Below, in pieces: positions 5,350 through 52,557 of a DNA stretch of 58,458 bases. Numbering within the stretch: the first letter of the stretch is position 1; each line of letters opens with the position of its first letter. The stretch lies in the NCBI GenBank assembly GCA_945860095.1, contig CAMAPP010000003.1, forward strand, positions 1 through 58,458, given 5' to 3'. Under the pieces are notes generated by a model. That model searched no databases and had not been told where the DNA came from. It worked only from the letters and a program-made list of their open reading frames with translations. The position numbers and the translations under genes were made by a program. This stretch comes from Rhizobium sp. Q54 (lineage in GTDB: Bacteria > Pseudomonadota > Alphaproteobacteria > CADEGL01).

Positions 5350-5392
5350 GATCGGGCCGGTTTTCGCGATCGGCCCGGCTTTCGCGTTCGGA
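5350..5392. repeat. 18-bp degenerate tandem repeat (about 2.4 copies)
   Basis: GATCGGGCCGGTTTTCGC / GATCGGCCCGGCTTTCGC / GTTCGGA. Confidence 0.75.
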
Positions 5393-5429
5393 TCAAAACG
5401 GGGGCGTCGGGGCGGGGGCGCCGTTCCCC

Positions 5430-5458
5430 TGGCTGGCGCGCGCACGCCTGCCTATAAT
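5430..5458 (+). promoter_or_regulatory. Probable sigma70 promoter of tRNA-Gly
   Basis: Perfect TATAAT at 5453-5458, 10 nt before the tRNA; -35 region weak. Confidence 0.5.
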
Positions 5459-5468
5459 CGGGCCCAGC

Positions 5469-5542
5469 GCGGGTGTAGTTCAATGGTAGAACGGCAGCTT
5501 CCCAAGCTGCATACGAGGGTTCGATTCCCTTCACCCGCTCCA
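5469..5542 (+). tRNA. tRNA-Gly(CCC)
   Basis: 74-nt cloverleaf GCGGGTG...CACCCGCTCCA; anticodon arm GCAGC-TTCCCAA-GCTGC; GGTTCGATTCC T-arm; encoded CCA. Confidence 0.98.
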
Positions 5543-5666
5543 TGATCCATCCATCCTTCGCCGCCCCGGCCCCGCTCGCGGCGCGAAGCTGGCGGTACGT
5601 GCCGCCGCTTCGCTGCCGCGCGCCGATTCTTGGCGCCGCCCTGCGCCGTCCCGCGCGCCGATTTGC

Positions 5667-6092
5667 ATGACGGCGTGCCGCACGATTTTTCCCGCGCTGC
5701 TTCTCGGCCTCGCGCTCGCATCCTGCGCGCCCGCGCGAAGTTGCGCGCCGCCTTTTGCCCAGGCCACGTCCTTCGCGCTGTTCTTCGGGCGGTCCCTGCC
5801 TTCGGGCGGCGAGGTCACGGAGTCCGAGTGGCGCGGCTTTCTCGATTCGGAAGTCGCGCCGCGTTTTCCCGCGGGCTTCACGACCGTGCCCGCGCGCGGC
5901 GCATGGCGCGACGCGGCGTCGGGGCGCACGCTCGCCGAGCGCAGCGAGGTGTTGGAAATCGTCGTGCCGGGCGGCGAGGGGCAAGCGCGCGCCGCGCGCG
6001 CGGCGGTCGAGGATATCGCCGCGTCCTATCGTCGGCGTTTTGCCCAGGAATCGGTGCTGCGCACGGAACGGAGTGTTTGCGCCGCGTTCTGA
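5667..6092 (+). CDS. DUF3574-like lipoprotein
   Basis: Lipobox LASC; LFFGRS, EWRGFLDSEVAPRFPAGFT and FAQESVLR patterns. Confidence 0.75.
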   Translation: MTACRTIFPALLLGLALASCAPARSCAPPFAQATSFALFFGRSLPSGGEVTESEWRGFLDSEVAPRFPAGFTTVPARGAWRDAASGRTLAERSEVLEIVVPGGEGQARAARAAVEDIAASYRRRFAQESVLRTERSVCAAF

Positions 6093-6114
6093 GCGGCGGC
6101 CTTGGCGGCGCCTT

Positions 6115-7335
6115 CTAGGGAGCGGCCGCGCGCGCGGCCTCGGAGCTGCGCCGCACCTGGAAGGCGGTGAACACCCCCAGGATCTGCATCACCATGACGG
6201 CTAGGAAGATGTGATGGGGCAGGTGCATGTCCATCAATAGGCCGAAGATCATGGGGCCGATGAGCGCGCCGAGATCGAGGCCCGAATAGACAAAGCCAAA
6301 GACCTTGCCGGTCGAGCCGGGCGGCGTCGCGGCCTTGACCAGCATGTCGCGCGATGGCCCCGTCATGCCGACCGCCAGGCCCGCGCCCGCCATCAGCGCC
6401 GCCGCGGCGTAATAACCCGGCCCCGCGCTCGCCAAAAACACCATCAGCACGGCCGCCGTCACCAGTCCCGCCGCCGCCACCCAATGGTGCTTGGGCGTTT
6501 GGTCGGCGACGATGCCGCCGATCAACATGCCGCTCGCCGAGGCGACGAGATAGGCGCTGAGCGCGTTCGTCGCGGCCGGCAGGCTGACGCCGTAAATATC
6601 GATGAAGGCCGCGACCGAAAAACTCTGAAGCCCGATCCCCGCCGCCGCCGTGAAGATGAAATAGGCGAAGGCGATCATGATCGCGGGCATGGCCAGCAAT
6701 TCGCGGTAGCTGATCGTCGCCGCCTTGGCTTGGGCGTCGTGCGCGTGCGCGCTCCCCGCCACGTTCAGGATGGGCGATCGCCACACCATGACCGCGACCG
6801 CGAGGCCGGCGCACCCGGCGATCAGCAGCGCCGTGCGCCAATCGAAAACATAGGCCAGCGCGCCGACCACCGCGGGCGCCGCGGCATAGCCGAGCGTGCC
6901 GAGAAAGGCGTGCACGCTATAAACCCGCCCCAGCCGGTTGTGCGCGATCTTCGACGTCATGATCGAGAAATCGGCCGGGTGGAAGACGCTATTGCCCACG
7001 CCTGCGAGCGCCGCCAGGGGATAGATCATCCAAAGCTCGGAGGCGAGCGAGGCCAGGGCCGTCGAGCCCGCGAGCAAGGCGATGCCCGCCGCGAGCACGC
7101 CGCGCGCGCCGAGGCGGTCGACGACCATGCCGGCGAAGGCTTGGCAAATGCCCGAGGCGATGAAGAACACGGTCACGATCAGGCCAAGCTCGGTCCAATC
7201 GGCGCCGAACTCGGTTTTCATCAGCGGGAACAGAGGCGCGAACGCGATCTGGAAAAAATGGCTGGTGAAATGGGCGAGGCCGACGAGGCCGGCAACCGTG
7301 GCGTCGTGGCGGACCGAGGGGGCTATGGCGACCAT
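6115..7335 (-). CDS. MFS transporter (Fsr-like)
   Basis: About 12 hydrophobic segments; GMVVDRLG motif A; start set at MVAIAP because the upstream ORF extension is non-coding-like. Confidence 0.88.
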   Translation of the reverse strand: MVAIAPSVRHDATVAGLVGLAHFTSHFFQIAFAPLFPLMKTEFGADWTELGLIVTVFFIASGICQAFAGMVVDRLGARGVLAAGIALLAGSTALASLASELWMIYPLAALAGVGNSVFHPADFSIMTSKIAHNRLGRVYSVHAFLGTLGYAAAPAVVGALAYVFDWRTALLIAGCAGLAVAVMVWRSPILNVAGSAHAHDAQAKAATISYRELLAMPAIMIAFAYFIFTAAAGIGLQSFSVAAFIDIYGVSLPAATNALSAYLVASASGMLIGGIVADQTPKHHWVAAAGLVTAAVLMVFLASAGPGYYAAAALMAGAGLAVGMTGPSRDMLVKAATPPGSTGKVFGFVYSGLDLGALIGPMIFGLLMDMHLPHHIFLAVMVMQILGVFTAFQVRRSSEAARAAAP

Positions 7336-7452
7336 CGCGGCGGAAGCTAAGTCCCCATGGCATCGCGGGCAAGCGCTGCCTGGCGCATGGCCGACCTGCG
7401 GGCGTGCGTGCGGGCGGGGCGGGCGGGGCATCCCGTTAAGATCGACCCCCCA

Positions 7453-7486
7453 AGGCCCGGCATCGATAAAGGCCCGGCACCGATAA
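7453..7486. repeat. 17-bp tandem duplication in the divergent promoter region
   Basis: AGGCCCGGCATCGATAA / AGGCCCGGCACCGATAA. Confidence 0.85.
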
Positions 7487-7540
7487 AGGGCCGCGCGGAG
7501 CGCCATTGCGCGCCCGGCCGGGGTGTTTCTTTGTTTGAAG

Positions 7541-7559
7541 GAAATGGTATAATATTGCA
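7541..7559. promoter_or_regulatory. Zur box
   Basis: GAAATGGTATAATATTGCA gives 15/19 matches to the recalled palindromic Zur consensus GTAATGTTATAACATTACA; it overlaps a TATAAT and precedes a Zn ABC operon. Confidence 0.8.
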
Positions 7560-7624
7560 TATTCGGATCTCGCGCCTGGGCTGGGCGCTGGGAGGAACGA
7601 TCTTCCCCCAATAGGAAATTCTTG

Positions 7625-7981
7625 ATGTCGAGCGAAGCCAATCGCGGCGCCGGGCACGGTCCCTCTCCTGGTCCCTCTGGCCCTGGCCATCCGGTGGGCC
7701 CTGGCCATCCGGGTCATAGCCATCCGGGCCCTGGCCATCCGGGCCCTGGCCATCCGGGCCAAGGCCATCCGGGCCCTGGCCATCCGGGCCAAGGCCATCC
7801 GGACCATAGCCATTCGGCCCAGGGCGACGTCGCTCATAGCCATCCGGGCAATGACTGCCTTGGCGATAGGCAATCGAGCGGCACGGGGGTGATGGCTGCG
7901 GGCCTGGGGCGGCGCATGGCGATCGCGGGTCTTGCTGCCGCGCTCGTCTGGCTCGCCGTCGCCTGGGCCTTGGCGTCGTGA
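7625..7981 (+). CDS. His-rich repeat protein with C-terminal membrane helix, first gene of the Zn operon
   Basis: AGGA RBS; 14 His in GHPG[PQ] repeats; C-terminal RRMAIAGLAAALVWLAVAWALAS; stop lies 1 nt before the ATPase ATG. TTG 7622 is an alternative start. Confidence 0.75.
   Translation: MSSEANRGAGHGPSPGPSGPGHPVGPGHPGHSHPGPGHPGPGHPGQGHPGPGHPGQGHPDHSHSAQGDVAHSHPGNDCLGDRQSSGTGVMAAGLGRRMAIAGLAAALVWLAVAWALAS
7680..7850 (+). repeat. 15-bp coding tandem repeat GGCCATCCGGGCC(CT/AA)
   Basis: At least 7 near-perfect units plus degenerate CATAGCCAT units. Confidence 0.95.
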
Positions 7982-7982
7982 G

Positions 7983-8789
7983 ATGGCGGAGGGCTCGCCT
8001 GCGATGAAACCGTCCACCGTCCGTTTGCTTGCCGCACATCCGCCGGCCATGAAGTTACCCGTCATCCGCTTGCAGGACGTGACCGTCAGCCATGACCGCC
8101 GACCGGCGGTGCATCACCTGAGCGGTGCCTTCGAAGCGGGCTCCATGACCGCGATCGTCGGGCCCAATGGTGCCGGCAAGACGACTCTGCTGCGCGCGAT
8201 CATGGGCCTGCAATCGGCCGAGGGGAGCCTCGCGGTCGAGGGTGCACGGCGCGGCGATCTCGCCTACCTGCCCCAGCAATCCGAACTCGACCGGCAGTTT
8301 CCGCTGACGGTTTACGATCTCGTGCTGATGGGCCATTGGCCGCGCGCGGGCGCGTTCCGGTCGATCACGCGCCCCCAGCGCGCGAGCGCGTGCGAGGCCT
8401 TGTCGGCGGTGGGCCTTGAGGGCCTCGAGGATCGCCCGGTCGGCACGCTGTCGGCGGGGCAGTTGCAGCGCGCCATGTTCGCGCGCGTGCTGGTGCAGGA
8501 CGCGCGCGTGTTGTTGCTCGACGAGCCGTTCAACGCCATCGATATGCGCACCACCGCAAATCTGCTCGACATCGTCGTGCGCTGGCACCGGGAACGGCGC
8601 ACCGTCCTCTGCGTGCTGCACGATCTCGAACTCGTGCGCGCGCATTTCCCGCGCACCTTGCTGATCGCGTGCGAACCCGTCGCCTGGGGTCCGACCGCCG
8701 AGGCGCTGACGCCGGCCAATCTTTTGCGCGCACGCGCCATGGCCGAACGCTGGAGCGAAGACGGCGAACACCGCGCGAGGCGGGCGTGA
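7983..8789 (+). CDS. Zn/Mn ABC transporter ATPase (AztA/ZnuC-like)
   Basis: GPNGAGKT, LSAGQLQR and LLLDEP motifs; start could also be 8004 or 8049. Confidence 0.92.
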   Translation: MAEGSPAMKPSTVRLLAAHPPAMKLPVIRLQDVTVSHDRRPAVHHLSGAFEAGSMTAIVGPNGAGKTTLLRAIMGLQSAEGSLAVEGARRGDLAYLPQQSELDRQFPLTVYDLVLMGHWPRAGAFRSITRPQRASACEALSAVGLEGLEDRPVGTLSAGQLQRAMFARVLVQDARVLLLDEPFNAIDMRTTANLLDIVVRWHRERRTVLCVLHDLELVRAHFPRTLLIACEPVAWGPTAEALTPANLLRARAMAERWSEDGEHRARRA

Positions 8790-9655
8790 TTTACGATCTG
8801 CTGGCTGCGCCCTTCGCCGACTACACCTTCATGCGCCGCGCACTCGTCGCCTGTTTGGCGCTGGCGATCGGCTGCGGGCCCATCGGGGTGTTTCTGGTGT
8901 TGCGGCGCATGAGCCTCATGGGCGACGCGCTGGCGCACGCGGTGCTGCCCGGCGCCGCGATCGGCTTTGTCGTCGGCGGGCTGTCCCTGCCGGCATTGAG
9001 TCTCGGCGGATTTGCGGCCGGTTTGGCGGTCGCGCTGTTCGCGGGCTTGATCGCGCGCGTGACGCGCCTGCGCGAGGACGCGAGCCTCGCGGGCACCTAT
9101 CTGATCGCGCTGGCCGCGGGCGTGCTGATCGTCGTGTCGCAAGGCTCGTATGTCGATCTCGTCCATATTTTGTTCGGCACCATTCTCGCGGTCGATGACG
9201 GGGCGCTGCTGCTCGTCGCCGGGATTTCGACCGTCACCGTCTTCGGCCTCGCGGTGCTGTACCGGGCCTTGGTGATCGAGTGCTTCGATCCCGGCTTCCT
9301 GCGCGCGGTCGGCGCGTCTGGCTCGCTGGTCCATCTCGGGTTCCTGGTGCTCGCGGTACTGAACCTCGTCGCCGGGTTCCAGGCGCTCGGCACGCTGCTC
9401 TCGCTCGGCCTTCTGCTTCTGCCTGCCGCCGCAGCCATGTTCTGGGCGGTCGCGCTGCCGCGCCTCATTCTGCTCTCGGCGGCCTTCGGCGCGGTCGCGG
9501 GCTATGTCGGCCTGCTGGCGTCCTATCACGCGGATTTGCCCTCCGGCCCGGCGATCGTGCTGGCGGCGGGCGCCATCTATCTCGTATCGCTCGCGGCGGG
9601 GCGGCACGGTTCGCTGCGCGCGCGGTATATGCCGCGGCTCCATATGGCGTCGTGA
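8786..9655 (+). CDS. Zn/Mn ABC transporter permease (AztB/ZnuB-like)
   Basis: RRMSLMGDALAHAVLPG and DLPSGPAIV motifs; GTGA overlap with the ATPase stop. Confidence 0.92.
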   Translation: MIYDLLAAPFADYTFMRRALVACLALAIGCGPIGVFLVLRRMSLMGDALAHAVLPGAAIGFVVGGLSLPALSLGGFAAGLAVALFAGLIARVTRLREDASLAGTYLIALAAGVLIVVSQGSYVDLVHILFGTILAVDDGALLLVAGISTVTVFGLAVLYRALVIECFDPGFLRAVGASGSLVHLGFLVLAVLNLVAGFQALGTLLSLGLLLLPAAAAMFWAVALPRLILLSAAFGAVAGYVGLLASYHADLPSGPAIVLAAGAIYLVSLAAGRHGSLRARYMPRLHMAS

Positions 9656-10638
9656 GCACGCGCCGGAAGATTTTCTGGCGGCGCGCGGCCATGCTGTGCG
9701 CCGGGCTATGGGCGATGGGTGTTGCGCCCGCCCTGGCCCAAGCCCCCGCTTCGGCCCAAGCCCCCGTCTTGGGTCAAACAAAGCCCGTCTTGGATCAGAC
9801 AAAGGTCGTCGCCAGTTTCAGCGTGCTCGCCGACATGGTGCGCGCGGTCGGCGGCGACAAGGTCGCGGTCGCCGCCCTCGTCGGCCCCGATGCCGATGCC
9901 CATGTGTTTCAGCCCTCGCCCTCCCACGGCAAATTCGTGGCCGGCGCCGCGCTCGTTGTCGTCAACGGCCTCGGCTTCGAGGGCTGGCTCGACCGCCTGA
10001 TCAAGGCGTCCGGCTATCGCGGCGCGGTTCTGGTTGCGAGCGACGGCGTCGCCACCATCGCGGCTCCGCCCGGCCACGCGCACGGTCCGACGCGCGGCGC
10101 CAAGCCGCCGCCCGATCCCCATGCCTGGCAGGATTTGCGCAACGGCCAAATCTACGTGCGCAATATCGTGGCGGGTCTCATCAAGGCCGATCCGGCGAAC
10201 GCCGATCACTACCGCGCCAATGGCGAGAAATACTTCGCCGAACTCGCCGCGCTCGACCGCTGGGCGCACGAGGAATTGGACGCCATTCCCAAGGACAAGC
10301 GCAAGGTCATTTCCTCGCACGACGCCTTCGGTTATTTCGCCGCCGCTTATGGCGTCACCTTCCTTTCGCCCGTCGGCGTCTCGACCGAGAAGGAGCCTAC
10401 GCCCAAGGACGTGGCGCGGCTCATCGCCCAGATGAAACGCGAAGAGGTGAGGGCTGTGTTCGTCGAGAACATGACCGATCCCCGCCTCGTCGCCCAAATC
10501 GCGAAGGAAGCGGGCGGCGCCGTCGGCGGCACGTTGTATGCCGATGCCTTGTCGAAGCCGGATGGCCCGGCAGGCAGCTACGTGGCGATGTTCCGCCACA
10601 ATGTGGCGGCGGTGCGCGCGGCGATGGCGCGCAACTGA
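9652..10638 (+). CDS. Zn/Mn ABC substrate-binding protein (AztC/ZnuA-like)
   Basis: DAHVFQPSP, DPHAWQD and SHDAFGYF metal-ligand motifs; signal peptide; GTGA coupling. Confidence 0.92.
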   Translation: MSTRRKIFWRRAAMLCAGLWAMGVAPALAQAPASAQAPVLGQTKPVLDQTKVVASFSVLADMVRAVGGDKVAVAALVGPDADAHVFQPSPSHGKFVAGAALVVVNGLGFEGWLDRLIKASGYRGAVLVASDGVATIAAPPGHAHGPTRGAKPPPDPHAWQDLRNGQIYVRNIVAGLIKADPANADHYRANGEKYFAELAALDRWAHEELDAIPKDKRKVISSHDAFGYFAAAYGVTFLSPVGVSTEKEPTPKDVARLIAQMKREEVRAVFVENMTDPRLVAQIAKEAGGAVGGTLYADALSKPDGPAGSYVAMFRHNVAAVRAAMARN

Positions 10639-10639
10639 G

Positions 10640-11596
10640 CTAGAGACGCTTGCCCATCAACCGGCCGAGCTCGCCCACGATGCCACGCCGGAAGGCGAGC
10701 ACGCAGACGACGAAGATGACGCCCTGTGCGATCGTGAGCCACGAGCCGAGCTGCGCCAGATAGTTCTGCATGGCGATGATTACGACCGCGCCGACCACGG
10801 GTCCGAACACGGTGCCGAGGCCGCCGAGCAGCGTCATCAGCACAACCTCGCCCGACATGCTCCAATGCACGTCGGTCAGGGACGCGAGCTGCACCACGAG
10901 CGCCTTGGTCGCGCCCGCGAGGCCCGCCAGCGAGGACGAGAGGACGAAGGCAATCAGCTTGTAGCGGTCGACCGAATAGCCGAGCGAAATGGCGCGCGGC
11001 TCGTTCTCGCGGATCGCCTTCAGCACCTGGCCGAAGGGCGAATGGATGACGCGGTATATGAATAGGAACCCGCCGAGGAAGATCGCCAGCACGACGGCGT
11101 ACAATGTCGTCGTGTCCTTGAGATCGAGCACGCCGAACATGTTGCCGAGCGGCACGGCCTGGATGCCGTCCTCGCCGCCGGTGAAGGGCGCCTGCAGGCA
11201 GAAGAAATAGACCATCTGCGACAAGGCCAGCGTGATCATGGCGAAATAGATGCCCTGGCGGCGAATGGCGATGGCGCCGAACACGGCGCCAATGCCACCC
11301 GCGGCCGCCGTGCCCGCGAGGATGGCGAGTTCCGGGGGCAGGCCCCAGACCTTGGCGGCGTGCGCCGCGACATAGCTTGCCATGCCGAAGAACGCCGCGT
11401 GGCCGAAGCTCAGCAGGCCGACATAGCCGATCAGCAGATTGAAGGCGCAGGCGAACAGCGCAAAACACATCGCCTTCATCAGGAACACGGGATAGATCGC
11501 CGCGGGCGCGGCCGCGAGCGCCACGGCCATGATCGCGAAGACGATCGCTTGGGTACGGAAGCTCGTGTCCGAGCGCGTGACGGGCGGCGCGGCCAT
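10640..11596 (-). CDS. livM: Branched-chain-type ABC permease (LivM-like)
   Basis: GLLSFGHAAFFG, TGGEDG and SPFGQVLKAIRENE motifs. Confidence 0.88.
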   Translation of the reverse strand: MAAPPVTRSDTSFRTQAIVFAIMAVALAAAPAAIYPVFLMKAMCFALFACAFNLLIGYVGLLSFGHAAFFGMASYVAAHAAKVWGLPPELAILAGTAAAGGIGAVFGAIAIRRQGIYFAMITLALSQMVYFFCLQAPFTGGEDGIQAVPLGNMFGVLDLKDTTTLYAVVLAIFLGGFLFIYRVIHSPFGQVLKAIRENEPRAISLGYSVDRYKLIAFVLSSSLAGLAGATKALVVQLASLTDVHWSMSGEVVLMTLLGGLGTVFGPVVGAVVIIAMQNYLAQLGSWLTIAQGVIFVVCVLAFRRGIVGELGRLMGKRL

Positions 11597-11598
11597 CC

Positions 11599-12486: not shown

Positions 12487-12520
12487 GGCGGTGGACGTGT
12501 CCTTGGCAAGCGCGGGCGCC

Positions 12521-12544
12521 GGGGCGGGCCGGAGGGCCCGCCCC
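12521..12544. terminator. Intercistronic 10-bp GC hairpin after the SBP gene (stabiliser or attenuator)
   Basis: GGGGCGGGCC-GGAG-GGCCCGCCCC perfect stem. Confidence 0.7.
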
Positions 12545-12552
12545 GATTCGCT

Positions 12553-15586: not shown

Positions 15587-15672
15587 CCCGCGATTGGGCC
15601 TCCCGAGATTGCGCACCCGGGATTGGTCGGCCCGGATGTCCGCCCCAGCCTTCTTGCGATCCGGCTTGCGAT
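15587..15672. repeat. Degenerate 14/15-bp repeat plus 12-bp duplication
   Basis: CCCGCGATTGGGCCT / CCCGAGATTGCGCAC / CCGGGATTGGTCGG, then CTTGCGATCCGG x2. Confidence 0.6.
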
Positions 15673-15678
15673 CCGGGC

Positions 15679-19292: not shown

Positions 19293-20015
19293 TCAGCGCG
19301 CGGCACGCCGGGGCTTGGCCCCGGATTTCGCGGCTCCGGATTTCGCGCCCCCGGATTTCCCGGCACCGGAATTTGCGCCACTGAATTTCGCGGCTCCGGA
19401 TTTTACGGCACCGGAATTTGCGCCACTGGATTTCGCGGCACCGGATTTTGCGCCACCGGATTTCGCGGCGGCCTTGCGCGCCACCTTGTACGATGGACGC
19501 TTTGCAACGGCGGAGGTTTGGCGCGCGCGCCAGCGCTCGAGCCGGGCGCGGACGCGATCATCCGCAAGCGACAATATGGCTGCGGCCAGTAGCGCGGCGT
19601 TGATCGCACCTGCCTTGCCGATGGCCAAGGTTCCCACGGGCACGCCGGCCGGCATTTGGGCGATCGACAGCAGGCTGTCCAAACCCTTGAGCGCGCGGCT
19701 TTCGACCGGCACGCCGAGAACGGGGAGCGAGGTCATGGCCGCCGCCATGCCGGGAAGATGGGCGGCGCCGCCCGCGCCGGCGATCACGACTTGCACGCCG
19801 CGCGCGCGTGCGCGGGCGGCGAATTCGTACAAGCGCCGGGGCGTGCGGTGGGCCGAAACGATCAGTGTCTCGTGCCGGATGCCGAGCGCCGCCAGGGTTT
19901 CGGCGGCGTGGCGCATGGTTTCCCAGTCGGACTGGCTGCCCATGATGATAGCCACGGGGATAATAGCCACGGGGCCGATGACGGCGACGGGACGGGCGGC
20001 GGGCCTCGTGGGCAT
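19293..20015 (-). CDS. purE: N5-CAIR mutase with C-terminal (KSGAA)n-like extension
   Basis: [24 protein letters not shown] and [10 protein letters not shown] motifs. Confidence 0.96.
19315..19465 (-). repeat. 15-bp coding tandem repeat AAATCCGGNG(C/G)CGCN, about 10 copies
   Basis: Encodes [25 protein letters not shown]... Confidence 0.95.
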
Positions 20016-22921: not shown

Positions 22922-23144
22922 AGCGGTATGTGGGTAAGCGGAATCGAGCGAGTCGATCTTCACCAAGCTCAAGGCCAGGCCGAAGTTCGGTCGCGGCGCG
23001 AACCGTGGAACACTCTCTGGGCGCCATCCGCTCCACCCTCGATGCCTTCTCTGCCCTCGATGCCTTCTCTGTCGCCGAATGCGCCAATTATTTCGAAAAT
23101 GCCGGTTATGTCCGACCCAGTCGCACGGCTCTTAAACCGCTCTA
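22919..23144 (+). mobile_element. IS630-derived miniature element or transposase remnant
   Basis: TA-AAGCGGT...ACCGCTC-TA (7-bp imperfect TIR with TA duplication); the interior translates to IER/FTKLKA/VAARTVE/LDAFS.AECANYFENAGY, like IS630 transposase C-termini. Confidence 0.75.
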
Positions 23145-24667: not shown

Positions 24668-24736
24668 GTCTCCCGCGCGTCTCGCCGTTCCGGCGAGCAT
24701 GTCTCCCGCGCGTCTCGCCGTTCCGGCGAGCATGTC
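24668..24736. repeat. Perfect 33-bp tandem duplication containing a hairpin
   Basis: GTCTCCCGCGCGTCTCGCCGTTCCGGCGAGCAT x2; CTCGCC-GTTCC-GGCGAG stem. Confidence 0.95.
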
Positions 24737-24840
24737 ACCCGCCGCGCACCCCGGGCAAGTACGGTGGCGCGGATCGCGCGAATCGGCTATGCCTGCCATT
24801 GTCCGTTAAGGGCGATTCCACCGATTCCGGGAGATTATTC

Positions 24841-37999: not shown

Positions 38000-38104
38000 T
38001 GCGCCCTCTTGCGCACATGGGGAACCGCTGGGGAAACCGCCTGGGCAGTCTATCATGGCGCTCGAGAAGGGCGAGGCGCACGACCGCGCCACAATATCGT
38101 CGCC

Positions 38105-38179
38105 GGCCCGTATCGGCCCGGCCCATATCGGCATGGCCCATATCGGCATGGCCCATATCGGCATGGCCCATATCGACGT
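38105..38179. repeat. 15-bp tandem repeat GGCCCATATCGGCAT x5 (three perfect)
   Basis: Units start at 38105, 38120, 38135, 38150 and 38165. Confidence 0.95.
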
Positions 38180-40790: not shown

Positions 40791-41050
40791 GGCGCGCGAC
40801 GCCCAAGTCGGCGCGCAACGCCCCGGTCGGCGCGCAACGCCCCAGTCGGCGCACAACGCCTCAGTCGGCGCACGACGCCCCAGTGGACGCGCGACGCCAA
40901 AACGCCCCCGCGCTCGCCGCCCGCACCTGCGCGCACGATCTGGCGTGCAACGCCCCAGTCGGCGCGCAACGCCCCAGTCGGCGCGCAACGCCAAGACGCC
41001 CTCACGTTCTCCGCCCGCCGCCCGCACCTGCGCTCACGATCTGGCGCGCG
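40791..41050. repeat. Higher-order array of 19-bp units with a longer unit repeated twice
   Basis: GGCGCGCAACGCCCCAGTC-type units (5 + partial, then 2 + partial), each block ending in CGCCCGCACCTGCGC(G/T)CACGATCT. Confidence 0.92.
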
Positions 41051-42592: not shown

Positions 42593-42605
42593 GCGGGCGG
42601 CATAA

Positions 42606-42701: not shown

Positions 42702-42740
42702 TTGTTGCCAAAAGATTTACCCGGAGGCGGGTCTGGCCCC

Positions 42741-42910
42741 GAGTAGGACCCGGAGTAGGACCTCGCCCCGAGTAGGACCTCAAGTGAGAGGCCTCGCCGT
42801 TCGCCCTTACGCCATCGCCGGGCGGAAATCGGCCAGTCGGAAATCGCCGGGCGGAAATAGGCCGGGCGGAAATCGGCCAGTCGGAAATCGACCGGGCGGA
42901 AATCGGCTTT
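42741..42910. repeat. GAGTAGGACC x3 and a 14/15-bp CGGAAATCGGCCAGT-type array x6
   Basis: GAGTAGGACC at 42741, 42753 and 42770; array units at 42823, 42838, 42852, 42867, 42882 and 42897. Confidence 0.9.
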
Positions 42911-43040
42911 GCCGGCCGGATTGGCTGAAATCGTGCCCTCCGGAGCGAAAACCGGGCCGGGCGCGTGGACGGCCCATGAGCCGGGTCGATATACTCGCCC
43001 ATTCTTCAAAGAGGCCACATTCTCCAAAAAGGCCAATGGC

Positions 43041-45195: not shown

Positions 45196-48100
45196 ATGGC
45201 CAAGGCGGCAAGCAGGGCGGGGGCCAAGGCGGCAAACAGGGCGGGGGATATCGCGCTCACGATCGGCATCGCCCTCTCCCTGGGTTGGATCGCGATCGTC
45301 GCGCTTTACGTCGAATACGCCATCGGCTGGGATTCGCTGCTCACCCTGCTCCCGAGCGAGCTTGCGACCATCCTCGCCGGCGGCGCCACGCCCCTCGCGT
45401 TCCTGTGGCTGTTCATCGCCTATCTTCAGCGCGGCCGCGACGTCGAGCATGCCGCGCGCGTCATCGAGCAACAGTTCAGTCGTCTGGTCTTTCCCTCCAG
45501 AGAGGCCGAGGAACACCACGCGTCCGCCGCCCAATCGCTTGCCCTTCAGGCCGACCGGCTGGCCTCCGTGTCGGACATGGCTGCGGTCAAGGTCGCGGAA
45601 GCGACCGAGGTCCTCCGGCGCACGGCGGACGATCTCCTCGCCGCTTCGGAAAAGGCCGCGAGCGGCGCCACCCGATCCTCGTCCGCCCTCGAGACGCCGC
45701 TCGCGGCGATGAAGCAACTGGTCGAGACCATCGAGGCGCGCGGCGCGGTGGCGGGGCAGCGCCTGACCGAGCAAGCCCGCCAGATCAAGGAGTCCTCCGA
45801 GCGCGGCGCGGCCGAGGCCGAGGCCGCCGCCGATCGCCTTTCGCGCGAGACCGCGCGCCTGGGCGAGGTCGCCGATCGCTTGAACGAGGATGCCCTCCGC
45901 GCGGCGCGGGAACTCGAGGGCCACGCAAGCGCGCTCGCCGCCGAAGCTTCGCGCGCGAGCGGGGAACTGAAGGCGATCGAGGACGAGGCCGCGAAGCGCT
46001 TGCGCGGTGTCGCGGGCGCGCTCGACGAGGTGGAGCGGCGCGTGATGGGTCTCGATGAGACCTTCGCCGGCCACTCGACCAAGCTCGGCGCCGCCGTCGC
46101 GCAGGCGGGGGAGAAAGCCGAGGCGCTCGACCAAGTGCTCGCCCGCCAGGCCGGGACGTTGAAACAGGGGCTCGAGCGCGCGGGCGTGCTGTCTGCGGAC
46201 ATGCAGCGCGCGCTCGAACAACAGACCCGCGCGCTCGATTCGCTGTCGGAGCGCCTGAGCGTTCAAACCCAGTCCATGGAAGAGAGCCTCACGCGGCAGG
46301 TCGCGGCCCTCGGCACGGCCGGCGAACACGGCGCGGCGCAGGCGGCGGCCATCCGCACCCAGCTTCGCCAGCAGGCCGACGAACTCATGACCGCGGCGGC
46401 GCGCGCCTCCGAGCGGGCGAGCTCGCTCGGCTCCGAATTGCGCCAGCGCACCGAGGCCCTGGCCGCCGCGGCCGAGCACGTGGGGCAGCGCGCAACCATG
46501 ATCGAGGTCGCGCTCGGCGAGCGCGCGGCCATATTGCGGAGCGCAACCGACGACGCCGTGGGTCAAGTGCGCGCGACCGAACTGGCGTTTTCCGACCATC
46601 TCGAGCGCCTCGGCGAGGCCACCAAGCGCGCCGGCGTTCAGACCGCGGAAATCGAGAATACCTTGCGCGAGCAAGCGAGCGCGCTTGCGGTCTCGGCCGA
46701 CCATGCGGGCGCGCGCACGCACGCCGTGCAGGAGGCCCTGCAGCAGCAGTCCGCGTCGCTGCGCTCGGTCGTCGACGCCGCGGCCGAGCAGGCCGAGGAC
46801 ATCGGCCGCTATCTCGGCCAGCAGGGCCGCGATGTGGCGCGTGCCTCGGTCGAGGCGGCCCAGCAGGCGCGCCAGGCCGGCGAGACGTTGCGCGGCCAGA
46901 TGACCGAGGTGATCGAATCGTCGAACCGCGCCGAAGCCAAGGCGCGCGCGGTGGCCGAGACCTTGGCGCGGCAGGTCGTGGCCCTGTCGAACGCGGCGGC
47001 GAACGCCGCCGACCGGGCGGCCACGGTCGAAGCCACGCTGGCGCGAGAAAGCGAGGCGCTCGACCAAGCGACGGGTGCCGCCGAAGCGCGTCTGTTGGGC
47101 ATGGCGAAGGCGCTTGGCGAACAGGCGGCCGCCTTGTCGAAGGCCTCGGTCGAGGCCGCCCAATCCGCCGAGGCGGCGCGCGGGGCGCTGGCCGAGGAGA
47201 CCGGATTGCTCGCCCAAAGCACGACGGATTTGGGCGCGGCCGTCAAGGCGCTGGAGACGCTGTCGCGCGATCACGCGGCGGCGGTGGGCACGGCCACCGA
47301 ACGCGGCCTCGAAGGCGCGCGCGCGGCCGGCGACAACTTGTCGCGCGAAGCGCGCGCCATGGCCGAGGGCATGGCGGAACGTGCGCGCGCGATCGCTCTG
47401 TCCATCGAACAAGCCGCGCGCTCCCAGATCGCCGCCTTCGCCGACGCGTCCGCGGGCGCCGCCGCGAACGTGCGTGGCACCCAATCCCAACTCGAGGACC
47501 AGGCGCGCGCCGTGCAGACGGCCATCGAGACGGCGACGCGGGTGCAATCCGCCGTCTTGGAAGCGGCTTCGCGCGCCGCGCTGGCCGGCACCGACGACAT
47601 GATCGCCAAGCTCGGTCCCCGGGTGGACGGCGTCGCGCAGGCCTTCGCCGACCGGGTGCGGGCGCTTGTCCAAGGCATCGAAGGCGCCGTGCGCTTGCAT
47701 GTCGATGCCCTCGACGGCGCCACCGCGATTTCGGCCGAGCGAACGCGTGCGGCGCAGGACGCGGTCGGCGAACAGGTTCGCGGCGCGCTGGCGGCGATCG
47801 AGCAAAGTTTCCGCCTCCACATCGATACCGTTTCCGAGGCCACGCGCGGCGCGGGCGAGCGCACCGCCGTCTTCGGCGAGGCGCTGGCGGGCGAGGTGCG
47901 GGCGGTCGAACAAGGCTTCGCCGAACATTCGCGCGCCCTCGCGCACGCGCTCGAGGAACAGGTTCGCGCCCAGAGCCGCGCGATCAACGAAGCGGCCGAT
48001 TCGGCGGTCGCGCGCGCCCAAGCCATGCGCGAGGCGCTCGCCCTTCAAGCGCGCGCCCTCGACGAGGCGGTGCAGCGCCAGGTACGCGATGTATCCACCG

Positions 48101-49341
48101 TTTCCGACCGCACCGTCTCGCAATCCGATCAGATGCGCGCCGCCCTTCAGCGCGACATGGAACTTCTCGCACAGACAGCGGACAACGCCGCGGCAAAAAC
48201 CCAGCAATTGGGCCAGGGTTTCCAGGCGCGCGCGGACGAACTCGACGCCGCCGCCGACCGCGCCGAGGCGCGCCTGAATGCGGTCGGCGAGGCGTTCCGC
48301 CAGCATGCGGGCGAACTCGGTGCCGCCTCCGAGCGCGCCGCGGCTCAAGCCGGCGGCATCGGCCAGGTGCTGCGCCAGGAGGCGCGCGTTCTGGGCACCG
48401 CGACCGACCAGGCGGGCGAGCAGATGCGCCTCATCGGCGATTCGTTCCGCGCCCAGTCGGACCTATTGAACCAAACCAGCGCCCAGGCGGCCGAACAGAT
48501 CAAGCAGACGGGCACCGCGTTCCGCCGTCAGGCCGAGGCGCTGACGGCGTCGTCGGAGGCGGCCGAATCGCGCCTCGGCGTGCTTCGCCTCGCCTTTCGC
48601 CAGCAGGCCGAGGATTTGGCGGCTTCGTGCGACCGGGCAGCGCAGCAGATGCGCGAAATCGGCGTTTCCCTGCTCGACCGCGCCAAGCGCCTGGCGGACA
48701 CCTCGGGCGACGCGGCGGCACGCGTCGGCCAGGTGACCGAAGCGCTGCAATCGCAGGCCCACGGTTTCAACACCGCGCTCGAGCAGGCCGCCGTGACCGC
48801 CGAGCGCGTCTCGAGCGTATTCCGCACCCAGGCCGAGGCGTTGACGATCGCCTCGTCGGATGCGAGCCGGCGGGCCGAACAGGTGATCGAGGCCGAGCGC
48901 GACGCCGTGCGGCGGAGCTTCCTGCGCACGGCCAATCTCATTCTTCAGGATTTGAATTCGCTCGGCGTCGATTTGAACCGCGTGCTCGGCCGCCCCGTGA
49001 CCGAAATCGAGATGAAGCGCTTCCTCAAGGGCGAGCGCGGCATCTTCGTGCGCAGCCTGATCGATGCGGGCGAACGCGACATCGCGCAAAAGATCCGGCG
49101 GCGCTACGAGGAAGACGGCGCCTTCCGGGGCCATGTCGGAAAATACCTGACCCAGTTCGACACGCTGCTGGCGCAGGCCAATGCGACCGATCCCGAAAAC
49201 CTGCTGAGCGCCACGATCCTCACCGCCGATGTGGGCAAGGTTTACATGCTGCTGTCGCGCGCCATCGGCCGGACGCAACCCGATCTCGAGCGTGCGACCA
49301 TGGTCGAACCCTCGCCCAAGGGCGCAGAGCGCCTGCGATAG
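45196..49341 (+). CDS. Large membrane-anchored helical-repeat protein, TipN/GPR(RgsE)-like (1381 aa)
   Basis: Two N-terminal TM segments, about 1150 aa of Ala/Glu/Arg apolipoprotein-like repeats, and C-terminal FRGHVGKYLTQFDTLL...ADVGKVYMLLSRAIGR. Confidence 0.7.
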   Translation: MAKAASRAGAKAANRAGDIALTIGIALSLGWIAIVALYVEYAIGWDSLLTLLPSELATILAGGATPLAFLWLFIAYLQRGRDVEHAARVIEQQFSRLVFPSREAEEHHASAAQSLALQADRLASVSDMAAVKVAEATEVLRRTADDLLAASEKAASGATRSSSALETPLAAMKQLVETIEARGAVAGQRLTEQARQIKESSERGAAEAEAAADRLSRETARLGEVADRLNEDALRAARELEGHASALAAEASRASGELKAIEDEAAKRLRGVAGALDEVERRVMGLDETFAGHSTKLGAAVAQAGEKAEALDQVLARQAGTLKQGLERAGVLSADMQRALEQQTRALDSLSERLSVQTQSMEESLTRQVAALGTAGEHGAAQAAAIRTQLRQQADELMTAAARASERASSLGSELRQRTEALAAAAEHVGQRATMIEVALGERAAILRSATDDAVGQVRATELAFSDHLERLGEATKRAGVQTAEIENTLREQASALAVSADHAGARTHAVQEALQQQSASLRSVVDAAAEQAEDIGRYLGQQGRDVARASVEAAQQARQAGETLRGQMTEVIESSNRAEAKARAVAETLARQVVALSNAAANAADRAATVEATLARESEALDQATGAAEARLLGMAKALGEQAAALSKASVEAAQSAEAARGALAEETGLLAQSTTDLGAAVKALETLSRDHAAAVGTATERGLEGARAAGDNLSREARAMAEGMAERARAIALSIEQAARSQIAAFADASAGAAANVRGTQSQLEDQARAVQTAIETATRVQSAVLEAASRAALAGTDDMIAKLGPRVDGVAQAFADRVRALVQGIEGAVRLHVDALDGATAISAERTRAAQDAVGEQVRGALAAIEQSFRLHIDTVSEATRGAGERTAVFGEALAGEVRAVEQGFAEHSRALAHALEEQVRAQSRAINEAADSAVARAQAMREALALQARALDEAVQRQVRDVSTVSDRTVSQSDQMRAALQRDMELLAQTADNAAAKTQQLGQGFQARADELDAAADRAEARLNAVGEAFRQHAGELGAASERAAAQAGGIGQVLRQEARVLGTATDQAGEQMRLIGDSFRAQSDLLNQTSAQAAEQIKQTGTAFRRQAEALTASSEAAESRLGVLRLAFRQQAEDLAASCDRAAQQMREIGVSLLDRAKRLADTSGDAAARVGQVTEALQSQAHGFNTALEQAAVTAERVSSVFRTQAEALTIASSDASRRAEQVIEAERDAVRRSFLRTANLILQDLNSLGVDLNRVLGRPVTEIEMKRFLKGERGIFVRSLIDAGERDIAQKIRRRYEEDGAFRGHVGKYLTQFDTLLAQANATDPENLLSATILTADVGKVYMLLSRAIGRTQPDLERATMVEPSPKGAERLR

Positions 49342-49350
49342 GCGGCGACG

Positions 49351-51276
49351 ATGAAACAGCACGCCTCCTTGCCCGACGATTCGGCGGCCCCGCCCGCGCC
49401 GCGCGCCGAACGCGAAGGCGGCCAGCGCCAGGCGCTGCGCGCACTCTTGCCCCATCTGTGGCCCAAGGGTTCGGTCGAGCTCAAGGCGCGCATCGTCGTG
49501 GCAGTCACTTGCCTCGTGCTCGCCAAGCTCGCGACCGTCTATGTCCCCCTGGTGTACAAGGGCGCGGTCGATGCCTTGACGCAGCCGGGCGGGCCGGCTT
49601 CGGCCGTGGTGCCCATGCTGGTCGTGCCGCTCGCGTTGCTCTTCGCCTACGGCCTTCTGCGCGTGACCTCGACCGCCTTCGGCGAATTGCGCGACGCGAT
49701 TTTCGCCAAGGTCGGCCAGCGGGCCGCGCGGCGAGTTGCGCTCGAGGTCTTCCGCCACCTGCACACCTTGGCCTTGGCGTTCCATCTCGACCGGCGCACG
49801 GGCGGGCTGTCGCGCGCCCTCGATCGGGGCACGAAGGGGGTGGAAACCCTCTTGTCCTTCCTGCTGTTCAACATCGTTCCGATGCTGGTCGAGATTCCGC
49901 TGGTCTGCGCGATTTTGTGGGCGCTTTACGACTGGCGCTTCGCGGCGGTTACCTTCCTCACCATCGGCGGCTACATCGTTTACACCTTGGCCGTGACCGA
50001 GTGGCGCATGAAGCACCGCCGGGCCATGAACGAAATGGACAACGAGGCGAACACCAAGATCGTCGACAGCCTGCTCAACTACGAAACGGTCAAGTATTTC
50101 GGCAACGAGGTCCACGAGGAACGCCGGCTCGATGCGGCGCTGTCGCGCTACGAGCGCGCGGCCGTGCTCACGCGCACCAGCCTTTCGGCCTTGAATCTGG
50201 GGCAGGCGACGATCATCGCCGTCGGCGTCACCTTCATCATGCTGATGGCGGCCCAGGGCGTGGTCGAAGGCGCCATGACGGTCGGGGATTTCGTGCTGGT
50301 GAACGCCTATCTGGTGCAACTCTACCTACCGCTCAATTTCCTCGGCGTGGCCTATCGCGAGATCAAGCAATCCCTGACCGATCTCGAGGTCCTGGCCGGA
50401 CTCAAGTCCTTGCGCGCGACGGTCGCGGACGCGCCCGGCGCGCCCGCGCTCGAGGTCGCGGGCGGGGAAATCGTCTTCGACCGCGTGACCTTCGGCTACG
50501 ACGAACGCCGGCCCATCCTCGACGGGGTGAATTTCACGGTTCCCGCCGGGCGCAAGCTCGCCATCGTGGGCGCGAGCGGCGCCGGAAAATCGACGGTCGG
50601 CCGGTTGTTGTTCCGCTTCTACGACGCGACCTCGGGTGCCATTCGCATCGATGGCCAGGACGTGCGCGCCCTCACCCAGGAATCGGTGCGCGCGGCCATC
50701 GGCGTCGTGCCGCAGGACACCGTGCTGTTCAACGACACGATCCATTACAACATCGCCTATGGCCGGCCCGATGCGTCGGCCGCGGAGATCGAGCAGGCGG
50801 CGCGCCTGGCGCGCATTCACGACTTCATCCTGGATTTGCCGGACGGCTATCGCACGCGCGTGGGCGAACGCGGCTTGAAGCTTTCGGGTGGCGAGAAGCA
50901 GCGGGTGGCGATCGCGCGCACGATTCTCAAGAATCCGCCCATCCTGCTGTTCGACGAGGCGACGTCCTCGCTCGATTCCGCGACCGAACGCGACATCCAG
51001 GAAAGCCTCAAGGCCATATCCTCCGATCGCACGACGATCGTGATCGCCCACCGGCTGTCCACGGTGGTCGATGCCGACGAGATCATCGTCATCGAGGACG
51101 GGCGGGTGGCCGAACGCGGCCGGCATGGCCCCTTGCTTCAGCAGGGCGGGCGCTACGCCGAGCTGTGGCGGCGCCAGCAAGAATCGACGCCCGAAACAGA
51201 CGCGCGAGACGCGAACGCGCCAAATCCGGAGCCGCCAAATCCGGCTAGGGCGCTGGCGGTCGAGCCGGCGCGATGA
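49351..51276 (+). CDS. ATM1/HMT1-type ABCB transporter
   Basis: FHLDRRTGGL, DSLLNYETVKYF, GASGAGKS, VGERGLKLSGGEKQR and FDEATSSLD motifs. Confidence 0.93.
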   Translation: MKQHASLPDDSAAPPAPRAEREGGQRQALRALLPHLWPKGSVELKARIVVAVTCLVLAKLATVYVPLVYKGAVDALTQPGGPASAVVPMLVVPLALLFAYGLLRVTSTAFGELRDAIFAKVGQRAARRVALEVFRHLHTLALAFHLDRRTGGLSRALDRGTKGVETLLSFLLFNIVPMLVEIPLVCAILWALYDWRFAAVTFLTIGGYIVYTLAVTEWRMKHRRAMNEMDNEANTKIVDSLLNYETVKYFGNEVHEERRLDAALSRYERAAVLTRTSLSALNLGQATIIAVGVTFIMLMAAQGVVEGAMTVGDFVLVNAYLVQLYLPLNFLGVAYREIKQSLTDLEVLAGLKSLRATVADAPGAPALEVAGGEIVFDRVTFGYDERRPILDGVNFTVPAGRKLAIVGASGAGKSTVGRLLFRFYDATSGAIRIDGQDVRALTQESVRAAIGVVPQDTVLFNDTIHYNIAYGRPDASAAEIEQAARLARIHDFILDLPDGYRTRVGERGLKLSGGEKQRVAIARTILKNPPILLFDEATSSLDSATERDIQESLKAISSDRTTIVIAHRLSTVVDADEIIVIEDGRVAERGRHGPLLQQGGRYAELWRRQQESTPETDARDANAPNPEPPNPARALAVEPAR

Positions 51277-51377
51277 TGCGCTCCGGCGCTGGGCGCGGTT
51301 TTGCGGCGCTGGTAGTCTCGGCCCATGATGGCTTGGTTCGCTAGCATGGCGTTCGGCGTTTTGCGCTTCCCGCTGCC

Positions 51378-52373
51378 ATGACCCGGCGGCCGAGCGGCCC
51401 GGCCCTGTCCGATGGCGTGGCGGCGGGCGATCGCCGGGCGCTTGCGCGCGCCATCACGCTCGTCGAATCGACGCGTGCCGATCATCGCGCCTTGGCCGAG
51501 GCGCTGCTCGCTCGCCTCATGGCGCGCACGGGACGCGCGCGGCGCATCGGTATCACGGGCGTGCCGGGGGTCGGGAAAAGCACCTTCATCGAGGCGTTCG
51601 GCCGGCACGCGATCGCGCGCGGCCACAAGGTCGCCGTGCTGGCCGTCGATCCATCCTCGCGGCGCGGCGGCGGCTCGATTCTCGGCGACAAGACGCGCAT
51701 GGAATTGCTCGCGCGCGAGCCCTCCGCTTTCATCCGCCCGTCGCCCGCGAGCGGCACGCTCGGCGGCGTCGCGCGGCGCACGCGCGAGGCCGGCCTCTTG
51801 TGCGAGGCGGCGGGTTTCGACGTCGTTATCGTCGAGACCGTCGGGGTCGGCCAGTCGGAAACCGCGGTCGCGGACATGGTCGATTTGTTCCTCTTGCTGT
51901 TGCAGCCGGGCGGGGGCGACGAATTGCAGGGCTTGAAGCGGGGCATCGTCGAGTTGGCCGATCTTCTGGTCGTGACCAAGGCGGACGGCGATTTCGTGCG
52001 CGCCGCCGGGCGCACCCTTGCCGATTTCAAAAAGGCGCTGACCTTGCTTCGGCCCGAATCGCCGCATTGGACGCCGCGCGTTCTTGCGTGCTCGGCCCTG
52101 ACGGGGGAGGGCATCGACGAAGTTTGGGCCGCGGTCGAGGACCATCGCGCGGCGATGGATAAGGCGGGCGGGCTCGCGCCGCGCCGCGCCGAGCAGGCGA
52201 GGCGCTGGCTGTGGAGCGAGATTTCCGACAGCTTGGTCGAGCGTCTGCGCGCCCACCCCGACGTCAAGGCGCGCCTGGCCGCGCTGGAAAAGGACGTGGC
52301 CGCCGGGCGGACCGCGCCGGGTGCGGCGGCGGGGGAATTGCTGCTTGCATTCCAAAAGGGCAAGCGAGGCTAG
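51378..52373 (+). CDS. meaB: Methylmalonyl-CoA mutase-associated GTPase
   Basis: [25 protein letters not shown] and [10 protein letters not shown] motifs. Confidence 0.95.
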
Positions 52374-52460
52374 GTTCGGGCGGAAGACGGCGCGCGCGGC
52401 CCTTCTTGACGCCTTGGCGCGCCTGGCCTAGAAACCGCGCCTCACGACCGACCGCCCACG

Positions 52461-52557
52461 ACCAATATCTTCGGGGGGCCAATGCCCTGGGGCGCCGTCG
52501 CCTTAAGGCAATATCTCCTTAAGGTACCATCGCCTTGGGGGGCAATGCCTCGGGCGC
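52461..52557. repeat. Degenerate ~16-bp repeat, about 6 units, upstream of rpmB
   Basis: GCCAATGCCCTGGGGC / GCCGTCGCCTTAAGGC / AATATCTCCTTAAGGT / ACCATCGCCTTGGGGG / GCAATGCCTCGGGCGC. Confidence 0.55.

Follow-up and report, generated by a model that had tools for sequence, protein, structure and literature searches.

The window analysed here, a 58,458-bp stretch of Rhizobium sp. Q54 (contig CAMAPP010000003.1 of assembly GCA_945860095.1), carries numerous short tandem duplications and arrays, which form the local part of a genome-wide excess of 12–19-bp head-to-tail duplications. This excess is specific to a genus-level lineage, peaks at a period of 15 bp, is filtered by reading frame within genes, and includes arrays whose copy number differs among nearly identical strains. 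The pattern matches the lineage-specific proliferation of tandem repeats known from other organisms, found here in a new lineage. We attribute it to one DNA-level mutational process that appears to act across the whole genome, probably replication-linked tandem duplication followed by slippage.

An earlier note, made from the sequence of the window alone, had listed 17 such loci, and Tandem Repeats Finder (TRF), run on the whole window, recovers 16 of them (Table 1). The exception, in the gene of an Atm1-type exporter, is present as a 15-mer in 1.7 copies, which is under the TRF threshold. As had been proposed, every array in the window lies in a spacer or at a protein terminus when placed by our own gene calls (obtained with a codon-usage gene caller that we wrote; 2,765 genes and 87% coding DNA in the whole genome). 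This genome is a 3.07-Mb metagenome-assembled genome (MAG) of 184 contigs with 66% GC and a completeness of ~96%. It contains 815 non-overlapping arrays with a TRF score of at least 50, or 266 per Mb, compared to 27 per Mb when it is simulated with an order-5 Markov model, and 222 exact duplications of 12–19 bp (72 per Mb), of which the simulation produced two in total (one each with periods of 12 and 15 bp). Copies within an array have a median identity of 88%, and 88 arrays are perfect. The density exceeds 100 arrays per Mb in 75 of the 82 contigs that are 15 kb or longer. The other seven (C2 (71.8 kb), C21, C27, C30, C35, C66, and C67) stay below this value, compared to a median of 234 per Mb; six of them have a GC content of 63.6%–65.4%, under the genome value of 66.1%, which C67 shares. 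These array-poor contigs could have been acquired recently or binned wrongly, or they could be regions of high conservation.

Of the arrays, 415 are in spacers, where they take up 6.4% of the DNA (1.04 per kb), and 322 are in coding sequences (0.12 per kb). The histogram of periods agrees with the earlier observation that 15 bp is the commonest one, in the window and likewise in the whole genome (157 of the 815 arrays). The intergenic arrays form a single peak, with 15, 40, 76, 50, 46, 51, and 17 arrays at periods of 13, 14, 15, 16, 17, 18, and 19 bp, respectively. In coding arrays, ~85% of the periods are multiples of three (15 bp, n = 74; 18 bp, n = 50; 21 bp, n = 64; 24 bp, n = 28; 12 bp, n = 23) compared to 43% in spacers. 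As the TRF score threshold censors two-copy repeats shorter than 13 bp, exact duplications with at least two full copies were also counted per period. Those with periods of 10 and 11 bp occur at chance level (11 vs. 12 and 7 vs. 3 in the simulation), and 30, 12, 26, 65, 22, 19, 40, and 8 are found at periods of 12 to 19 bp, respectively; thus, neither the 15-bp mode nor the lower bound near 12 bp is a threshold artefact. Array density is similar in tandem (0.94 per kb), divergent (0.95 per kb), and convergent spacers (1.25 per kb), which indicates that promoters and transcription initiation are not involved, and an origin at promoters or transcription bubbles was rejected because convergent spacers are as array-rich as divergent ones. 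This independence of orientation resembles what a neutral supply of mutations, then sieved by selection, would produce. Together with intergenic periods that are not multiples of three, it bears out the view that the process operates at the level of DNA.

For comparison, ten other alphaproteobacterial genomes with 61%–69% GC, six of them from the same family, were sampled at 30–280 kb per genome (1.05 Mb in total), along with the only other species of the genus (G001), which has an average nucleotide identity (ANI) of ~85% to the genome studied here (G000). Exact 12–19-bp duplications occur at 72 per Mb in G000, at 25–26 per Mb in the sister species, and only five times in all ten controls (~5 per Mb). 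Similarly, TRF arrays with periods of 13–18 bp reach 149 per Mb in G000 and 77 per Mb in the sister species, likewise with a 15-bp mode, and ~21–27 per Mb in the controls sampled at 130 kb or more. The supposed lineage specificity therefore stands in this GC-matched comparison, in which the density of exact duplications is ~15-fold higher in G000 and ~5-fold higher in the sister species than in the ten relatives. The few exact duplications of the controls are also 14–18 bp long, so the speciality of G000 may lie in the rate of duplication and not in its size.

The sister species also reveals the direction of change. Its contig C111 is syntenic with positions 3–33,494 of the window at 88%–90% identity, and the arrays and duplications at 9,763, 15,587/15,653, 23,036, and 24,668 are all missing at the matching places. 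The array at 7,679 has ~2 copies there compared to ~11 in G000. In the spacer at 23,036, G001 has a different duplication (19 bp × 2), pointing to an independent event, and the 18-bp duplication is specific to G000. At the purE tail, a 12-bp × 3 array (GCAAATCGCCGG) is found where G000 has a 15-bp × 10 array. A related MAG (L129, ~90% identical) has a single copy at 38,105 and one copy at the duplication site at 38,018. The indels (≥9 bp) that separate G000 from G001 are concentrated at lengths of 12–19 bp, and in most cases the additional sequence is in G000. Relative to these sister genomes, the arrays are the derived state. A further difference concerns the N-terminus of DNA polymerase I (PolA, contig C60), where G000 has eight extra residues (PRRVDLPA-like) directly before the conserved RHVYLVDGSGY with which the 5′-nuclease domain starts, compared to G001, possibly another small insertion generated by the same duplication process.

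Look-ups of exact protein sequences led to conspecific assemblies, which come from two Logan runs and five ENA samples; the gene call at 8,049–8,789 had no hit in such a look-up, probably owing to a misplaced start codon. Over 94,374 bp aligned with these assemblies (99.2%–100% identity), there are 134 single-nucleotide polymorphisms (SNPs), one 1-bp indel, and five longer indels, all of which are whole-unit changes inside arrays. The array at 38,105 has one 15-bp unit fewer in L053 and one more in L054, that at 7,679 is 30 bp (two units) shorter in L121, and that at 40,791 is ~82 bp shorter in L053. The 33-bp unit at 24,668 is present once in L116 and twice in L117–L119. In L116, a 9-bp direct repeat (GTC[T/A]CCCGC, imperfect) borders the single copy on both sides, a one-copy form that represents the classic precursor of a duplication. 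Such whole-unit differences between assemblies of 99.2%–100% identity confirm that the process is ongoing.

The same assemblies speak to the reality of the arrays. Although a MAG of 184 contigs might be suspected of misassembly, L117 is 100% identical over 11.3 kb spanning both purE arrays and the duplications at 23,036 and 24,668, L122 is 99.99% identical, and the purE array at 19,317 is reproduced in both. These other arrays recur base-for-base in the independent ENA and Logan assemblies, so that an assembly artefact is ruled out, and there is no build-up of arrays at contig ends (25 observed vs. 19.5 expected). A chance effect of the 66% GC composition is contradicted by both the Markov simulation and the GC-matched relatives, with 4–15-fold fewer arrays or duplications. 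We thus give practically no credence to the arrays being artefacts of assembly or composition.

Many arrays have become part of proteins. In-frame arrays are present in 289 of the 2,765 called genes (10.5%), and their distribution along genes is skewed towards the ends, with 53 in the first and 50 in the last decile and 16–33 in each of the eight middle ones. In the segments that they encode, Gly, Ala, Pro, Lys, Asp, and Ser are over-represented, and Cys and aromatic residues are under-represented. PurE, for instance, is 251 residues long, with its AIRC domain (Pfam) ending at residue 178 and a tail of (AAKSG)×10, and the corresponding open frames of relatives are mostly ~170–240 residues long. 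A 14-mer (AAATCCGGAGCCGC) is indeed common to the tails of purE and the Atm1-type exporter gene, as the earlier note had pointed out, and is read as KSGAA in the former and PNPEP in the latter. In the ZnuA/AztC protein, the ZnuA domain (Pfam) begins at residue 52, downstream of the duplication in the leader. The suggestion that the process seeds low-complexity protein tails is supported by the PurE and exporter tails, the ZnuA/AztC leader, the N-terminus of a 1381-residue protein, and the 289 genes.

A shared ATC(C)GG core had been proposed for the repeat units. Scored against length-matched random spacer windows, ATCGG is found in 45 of the 328 intergenic units compared to 19.7 expected (14%, 2.3-fold), but a dispersed conserved element is not behind it. 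GGCCC is enriched to a similar degree (62 vs. 23.5 expected, 19% of units, 2.6-fold), as is CCCGA (41 vs. 18.3). Words of 8–10 bp are shared among units 1.5–1.8 times more often than among the null windows, and the longest recurrent word, CGATCGGCCCG, has 22 genomic occurrences, five of them inside arrays. Among the spacers of G000, there is no frequent 12-mer except for GC-rich low-complexity words (of CG/GC type, and one poly-C/poly-G run). A dispersed repeat family (repetitive extragenic palindromes, miniature inverted-repeat transposable elements, or iterons) as the source of the core was rejected because no dispersed 12-mer family was found, and the unit is different at every locus in the TRF output. 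What had appeared as a core is either a slight preference of sequence or an effect of composition; the earlier caveat that base composition may partly account for it was appropriate, given an only ~2-fold enrichment and no dispersed element.

The earlier note had suggested weak repair, end-joining, or a templated nucleotide-adding enzyme as the source of the duplications, and we searched for the respective genes with Pfam or NCBIfam models in G000, G001, and eleven relatives. MutS and MutL are encoded in open frames of 954 (contig C15) and 653 residues (C10) without stops. The PolA 5′-nuclease domain (PF02739, 3.7e-58) lies inside a 973-residue frame and, compared by eye, is closely similar to that of the relatives. 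RecJ (2.3e-156, C25), the large subunit XseA of exonuclease VII (ExoVII; 2.4e-98, C177), RNase HI, and RNase HII were matched as well. Deficiency in RecJ or ExoVII destabilises tandem repeats in Escherichia coli, and yeast rad27 and E. coli polA 5′-nuclease mutants accumulate short tandem duplications that are linked to Okazaki fragment maturation and flanked by direct repeats. Unlike these mutants, G000 is predicted to have a full-length PolA with a 5′-nuclease region like that of its relatives and both RNases H. Judged by the presence of domains, the notion of weak repair thus finds no support, and loss of a gene for MutS, MutL, the PolA 5′-nuclease, RecJ, ExoVII, RNase HI, or RNase HII was rejected as the cause. 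In the sister species, recJ had no match, although it is present in every other genome searched; this is probably an assembly gap in a genome of 96% completeness and 190 contigs. Neither Ku (PF02735) nor an ATP-dependent ligase (PF01068) was matched in G000 or G001, both MAGs of ~96% completeness, but the positive controls and two relatives matched, which speaks against end-joining; the evidence for the absence of Ku and the ligase is strong, if not absolute given the completeness of the MAGs. The idea of a templated nucleotide-adding enzyme fared no better, as no reverse transcriptase (PF00078), such as those of retrons, diversity-generating retroelements, or group II introns, was detected in G000 or G001, and three relatives matched.

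Duplication junctions provide further clues. Among 86 isolated exact two-copy duplications, 45% have no microhomology at the junction, 26% have 1–2 bp of it, and 28% have 3 bp or more. Flanks match at six or more of eight bases in 28% of isolated exact duplications compared to 3% in a positional null. In a survey of variable tandem duplications in bacteria, 25%–30% had no such arms and about half had arms of more than 3 bp (bioRxiv 10.64898/2026.02.28.708716), and G000 is therefore shifted towards arm-less events. At the boundaries of 57 integral-copy duplications, T occupies position −1 in 32%, TT precedes the boundary in 12% (~3% expected), and C follows at +1 in 46%. In a post hoc count, CCTT precedes six of 114 boundaries compared to ~0.4 expected, for which reason topoisomerase IB (TopIB, PF01028) was searched for. 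Rearrangement by this enzyme was rejected, as it had no match in G000 and G001 (G002 and Deinococcus matched). An origin of the T|C boundary at lagging-strand or primase sites was likewise dismissed because the boundaries followed neither GC skew nor gene orientation (16 of 33 concordant, a test of low power). Hairpin-nucleated duplication was not retained either: precursor sequences in spacers fold at −0.334 kcal/nt compared to −0.304 kcal/nt for random spacer (p = 0.018), and those in genes no better.

We consider replication-linked tandem duplication combined with slippage, at an unusually high net rate and with no cause found, the probable explanation of these observations. Replication or repair synthesis would give a local segment of ~12–19 bp (mode 15 bp) a second, head-to-tail copy, in some cases via short flanking direct repeats, i.e. 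by microhomology-mediated tandem duplication (MTD), and in others without recognisable microhomology. Once two copies exist, slipped-strand misalignment may add or remove whole units, giving rise to strain-variable arrays of up to ~13 copies. Selection would then act as a filter that lets all unit lengths survive in spacers, resulting in ~1 array per kb, and in genes retains frame-preserving events in tolerant termini and linkers, which would yield tails rich in Ala, Gly, Pro, Lys, and Ser. The lineage may thus have a raised rate of formation, or of retention, of such duplications. Several observations weigh against this explanation. Plain slippage cannot start without pairing, and the 45% of junctions with zero microhomology exceed the 25%–30% of the survey. 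This shift is not proof of a different mechanism, and by our own estimate most of it could be explained by eroded arms of 3–4 bp in old arrays homogenised by unit turnover. The bell-shaped spectrum without an excess at 10–11 bp is unlike a simple model in which slippage decays with distance, and there is a bias at boundaries, weak and post hoc as it is. Furthermore, gene content points to no causal loss among the tested genes for repair and Okazaki fragment maturation, and the data are compatible with a raised rate of formation as well as with a reduced rate of loss. The same features could be read as signs of a length-measuring process that duplicates arbitrary DNA in quanta of 15 ± 2.5 bp independently of microhomology, perhaps anchored at T-rich sites, for example by two nicks ~1.5 helical turns apart or by a nick and a repair patch of fixed length, with the strand-displaced copy being retained. 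The unimodal 12–19-bp spectrum lacking a 10–11-bp excess, blunt junctions in 45% of the isolated exact duplications vs. 25%–30% in bacteria generally, and the enrichment of T at −1, TT at −2/−1, C at +1, and post hoc CCTT (6/114 boundaries) would fit such a process. Yet it has no candidate enzyme, as the searches for Ku, ATP-dependent ligase, reverse transcriptase, and TopIB leave blunt joining without a known agent; ~28% of the events clearly use microhomology; the boundary bias is weak, post hoc, and without strand asymmetry relative to GC skew; and the duplications of the control genomes are also 14–18 bp long, so that any ruler may be general and the rate alone special. We therefore regard such a process as unlikely. 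If it were real, a normal-looking replication or repair protein would have a new error mode that operates without Ku, LigD, or reverse transcriptase, and the lineage would offer a natural system to study what sets the birth rate of bacterial minisatellites.

Somewhat less doubtful, though still clearly behind duplication and slippage at a raised rate, is the possibility that duplications form at an ordinary rate and are slowly removed, owing to a weaker deletion bias or to weaker purifying selection in a small effective population, letting neutral duplications build up in spacers and at protein ends. No tested repair or replication gene is missing, the control genomes contain the same size class at low density, and many arrays are old and diverged (median copy identity of 88%), all of which would agree with slow removal. 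However, five unit indels vs. 134 SNPs in 94 kb amount to a fast turnover that includes losses, 88 arrays are perfect, the ordinary coding density of 87% argues against a general build-up of junk DNA, and a ~3-fold difference already separates G000 from the sister species (85% ANI). It is highly improbable, in turn, that the arrays are selected functional elements, such as arrays of regulator sites, iteron-like sites, spacing devices, or adaptive disordered tails. The purE tail and the spacer at 7,679 do contain arrays at orthologous places in both species, and the units are ~2-fold enriched in GGCCC and ATCGG, but the unit differs at each locus without forming a dispersed family, convergent spacers without a promoter are equally dense, copy number varies among near-identical strains, the orthologous purE arrays have periods of 12 vs. 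15 bp, and most arrays are missing from the sister species.

Comparable proliferation is known from Ehrlichia ruminantium (genome-wide) and the whitefly symbiont Portiera, where lineage-specific short tandem repeats, mostly intergenic and with strain-variable copy number, occur within otherwise repeat-poor groups. Both are obligate intracellular bacteria with reduced genomes, and Portiera lacks genes for replication and repair. In contrast, G000, from an uncultured bacterium represented solely by metagenomic sequence, is a 3.07-Mb MAG in which all tested repair genes are present. To our knowledge, neither a density of ~1 array per kb of spacer nor a 15-bp mode has been reported, and a literature search for a described 15-bp period peak in bacteria returned nothing specific. 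The events described as MTD (bioRxiv 10.64898/2026.02.28.708716; PNAS 2026, PMC13167724) resemble those in G000 in that they start with the head-to-tail duplication of a local segment present once, followed by expansion, that they are selected out of coding DNA, and that a one-copy form flanked by direct repeats exists (here in L116), with ~28% of the isolated events in G000 having arms of at least 3 bp. G000 differs by a density ~15-fold that of its relatives, by 45% vs. 25%–30% arm-less events, and by a spectrum peaked at 15 bp. The repeats of the Borg elements of Methanoperedens (PLoS Biol 2023, PMC9879509) are likewise genome-specific, locally derived, and fast-evolving, with a separate unit per locus. 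As in G000, their units are divisible by three in open reading frames but not in intergenic regions, they encode disordered protein regions, and their copy number varies within populations. Borg repeats, however, are nearly all perfect, A-rich, and located on an extrachromosomal element, whereas those of G000 reside on a bacterial chromosome of 66% GC and are mostly imperfect, without A bias and with a weak enrichment of GGCCC and ATCGG. Finally, the variable-number tandem repeat (VNTR) loci used in multiple-locus VNTR analysis of bacteria such as Xanthomonas share units of 10–30 bp, GC-rich genomes, and strain-variable copies with G000, and they are treated as scattered markers (PMC10174486).

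Features worth following in this lineage are a set of tested repair genes that is intact, a length spectrum peaked at 12–19 bp, and a large proportion of junctions without arms. Why some lineages fill with tandem repeats and their close relatives do not is a question in genome evolution, and earlier cases were mostly reduced symbionts or extrachromosomal elements, in which missing repair genes or exotic polymerases could be blamed. Here, the sister species is intermediate and the other genera of the family are repeat-poor, so the cause should be tractable by comparative genomics. The arrays also show proteins in the course of evolving, with an in-frame repeat in roughly a tenth of the genes and, in the housekeeping enzyme PurE, the gain of a tail of 50 residues whose period differs between sister species. 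In addition, they can serve directly as strain markers in a group that is uncultured, and they are known to be hazardous when genomes are assembled from short reads.

The repeats of the window are compiled in Table 1.

Table 1. Tandem duplications and arrays in the 58,458-bp window, with positions counted from its first base.
Position	Strand	Unit × copies	Location and features	Evidence
5342–5391		18 bp × 2.8	intergenic array, unit GCTTTCGCGATCGGCCCG; spacer 5257–6114	TRF
7452–7493		17 bp × 2.5	intergenic array; divergent spacer 7336–8048	TRF
7679–7849		15 bp × ~11	intergenic array; 45-bp higher-order period	TRF
9763–9804	+	21 bp × 2.0	in-frame duplication, ZnuA/AztC N-terminal leader; VLGQTKP/VLDQTKV	TRF, translation
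15587–15626		14 bp × 2.8	intergenic array	TRF
15653–15676		12 bp × 2, exact	intergenic duplication; no junction microhomology; left flank ending CCTT	TRF
19317–19469	−	15 bp × 10.2	array encoding PurE C-terminal tail (AAKSG)n	TRF, translation
19944–19974	−	15 bp × 2.1	in-frame duplication, PurE N-terminus	TRF, translation
23036–23071		18 bp × 2, exact	intergenic duplication; no microhomology	TRF
24668–24742		33 bp × 2.3	intergenic duplication; strain-polymorphic	TRF
38018–38045		11–13 bp × 2.3	intergenic duplication	TRF
38105–38175		15 bp × 4.7	intergenic array; strain-level VNTR	TRF
40791–41046		19 bp × 10.7	array; 94-bp higher-order repeat (94 × 2)	TRF
42737–42781		12 bp × 2.2 and 17 bp × 1.9	overlapping duplications	TRF
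42817–42907		15 bp × 6.1	intergenic array GCCGGGCGGAAATCG; 44-bp higher-order period	TRF
43000–43035		18 bp × 2.0	duplication directly upstream of methylmalonyl-CoA mutase gene	TRF, Pfam
45198–45247	+	24 bp × 2.1	in-frame duplication, N-terminus of 1381-residue protein; AKAASRAG/AKAANRAG	TRF, translation
51220–51244	+	15-mer × 1.7	C-terminal tail of Atm1-type ABC exporter; PNPEPPNP	translation
52498–52536		16 bp × 2.4	intergenic array upstream of rpmB (L28)	TRF

One duplication had been placed inside a decayed insertion sequence (IS), but Pfam searches of 20 reading frames from array-bearing spacers and the 3′ end of the window revealed no transposase or IS remnant. The spacer 5257–6114, where a decayed gene may have been seen, adjoins the site of a flavin monooxygenase gene in G001. 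There, contig C111:28673–30365 (L127) contains an extra 1.7 kb relative to positions 5361–5449 of the window, encoding a Baeyer–Villiger-type flavin monooxygenase of ~500–600 residues. G000 has only spacer at this site, with the 18-bp array at the junction, indicating that the gene was either lost in G000 or gained in G001.

The exact 12-bp duplication at 15653–15676 and another one at an unrelated locus (contig C7:8703–8726) have similar units and right flanks, the unit/flank pairs being ..GCGATCCGG|GCCTACCGCGCC and ..GTGCGCCGG|GCCTACGGCGCA, respectively. Such likeness might stem from a sequence context that recurs or from a small paralogous element. Repeats can also accumulate within a single spacer, as in the 448 bp between positions 42593 and 43040, where four separate duplications or arrays are found (12 bp × 2.2, 17 bp × 1.9, 15 bp × 6.1, and 18 bp × 2.0). 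The gene for the 1381-residue protein (45196–49341) lies between those for the methylmalonyl-CoA mutase and the Atm1-type exporter; its product has no Pfam match at E ≤ 0.001 and is predicted to have a membrane-like N-terminus.

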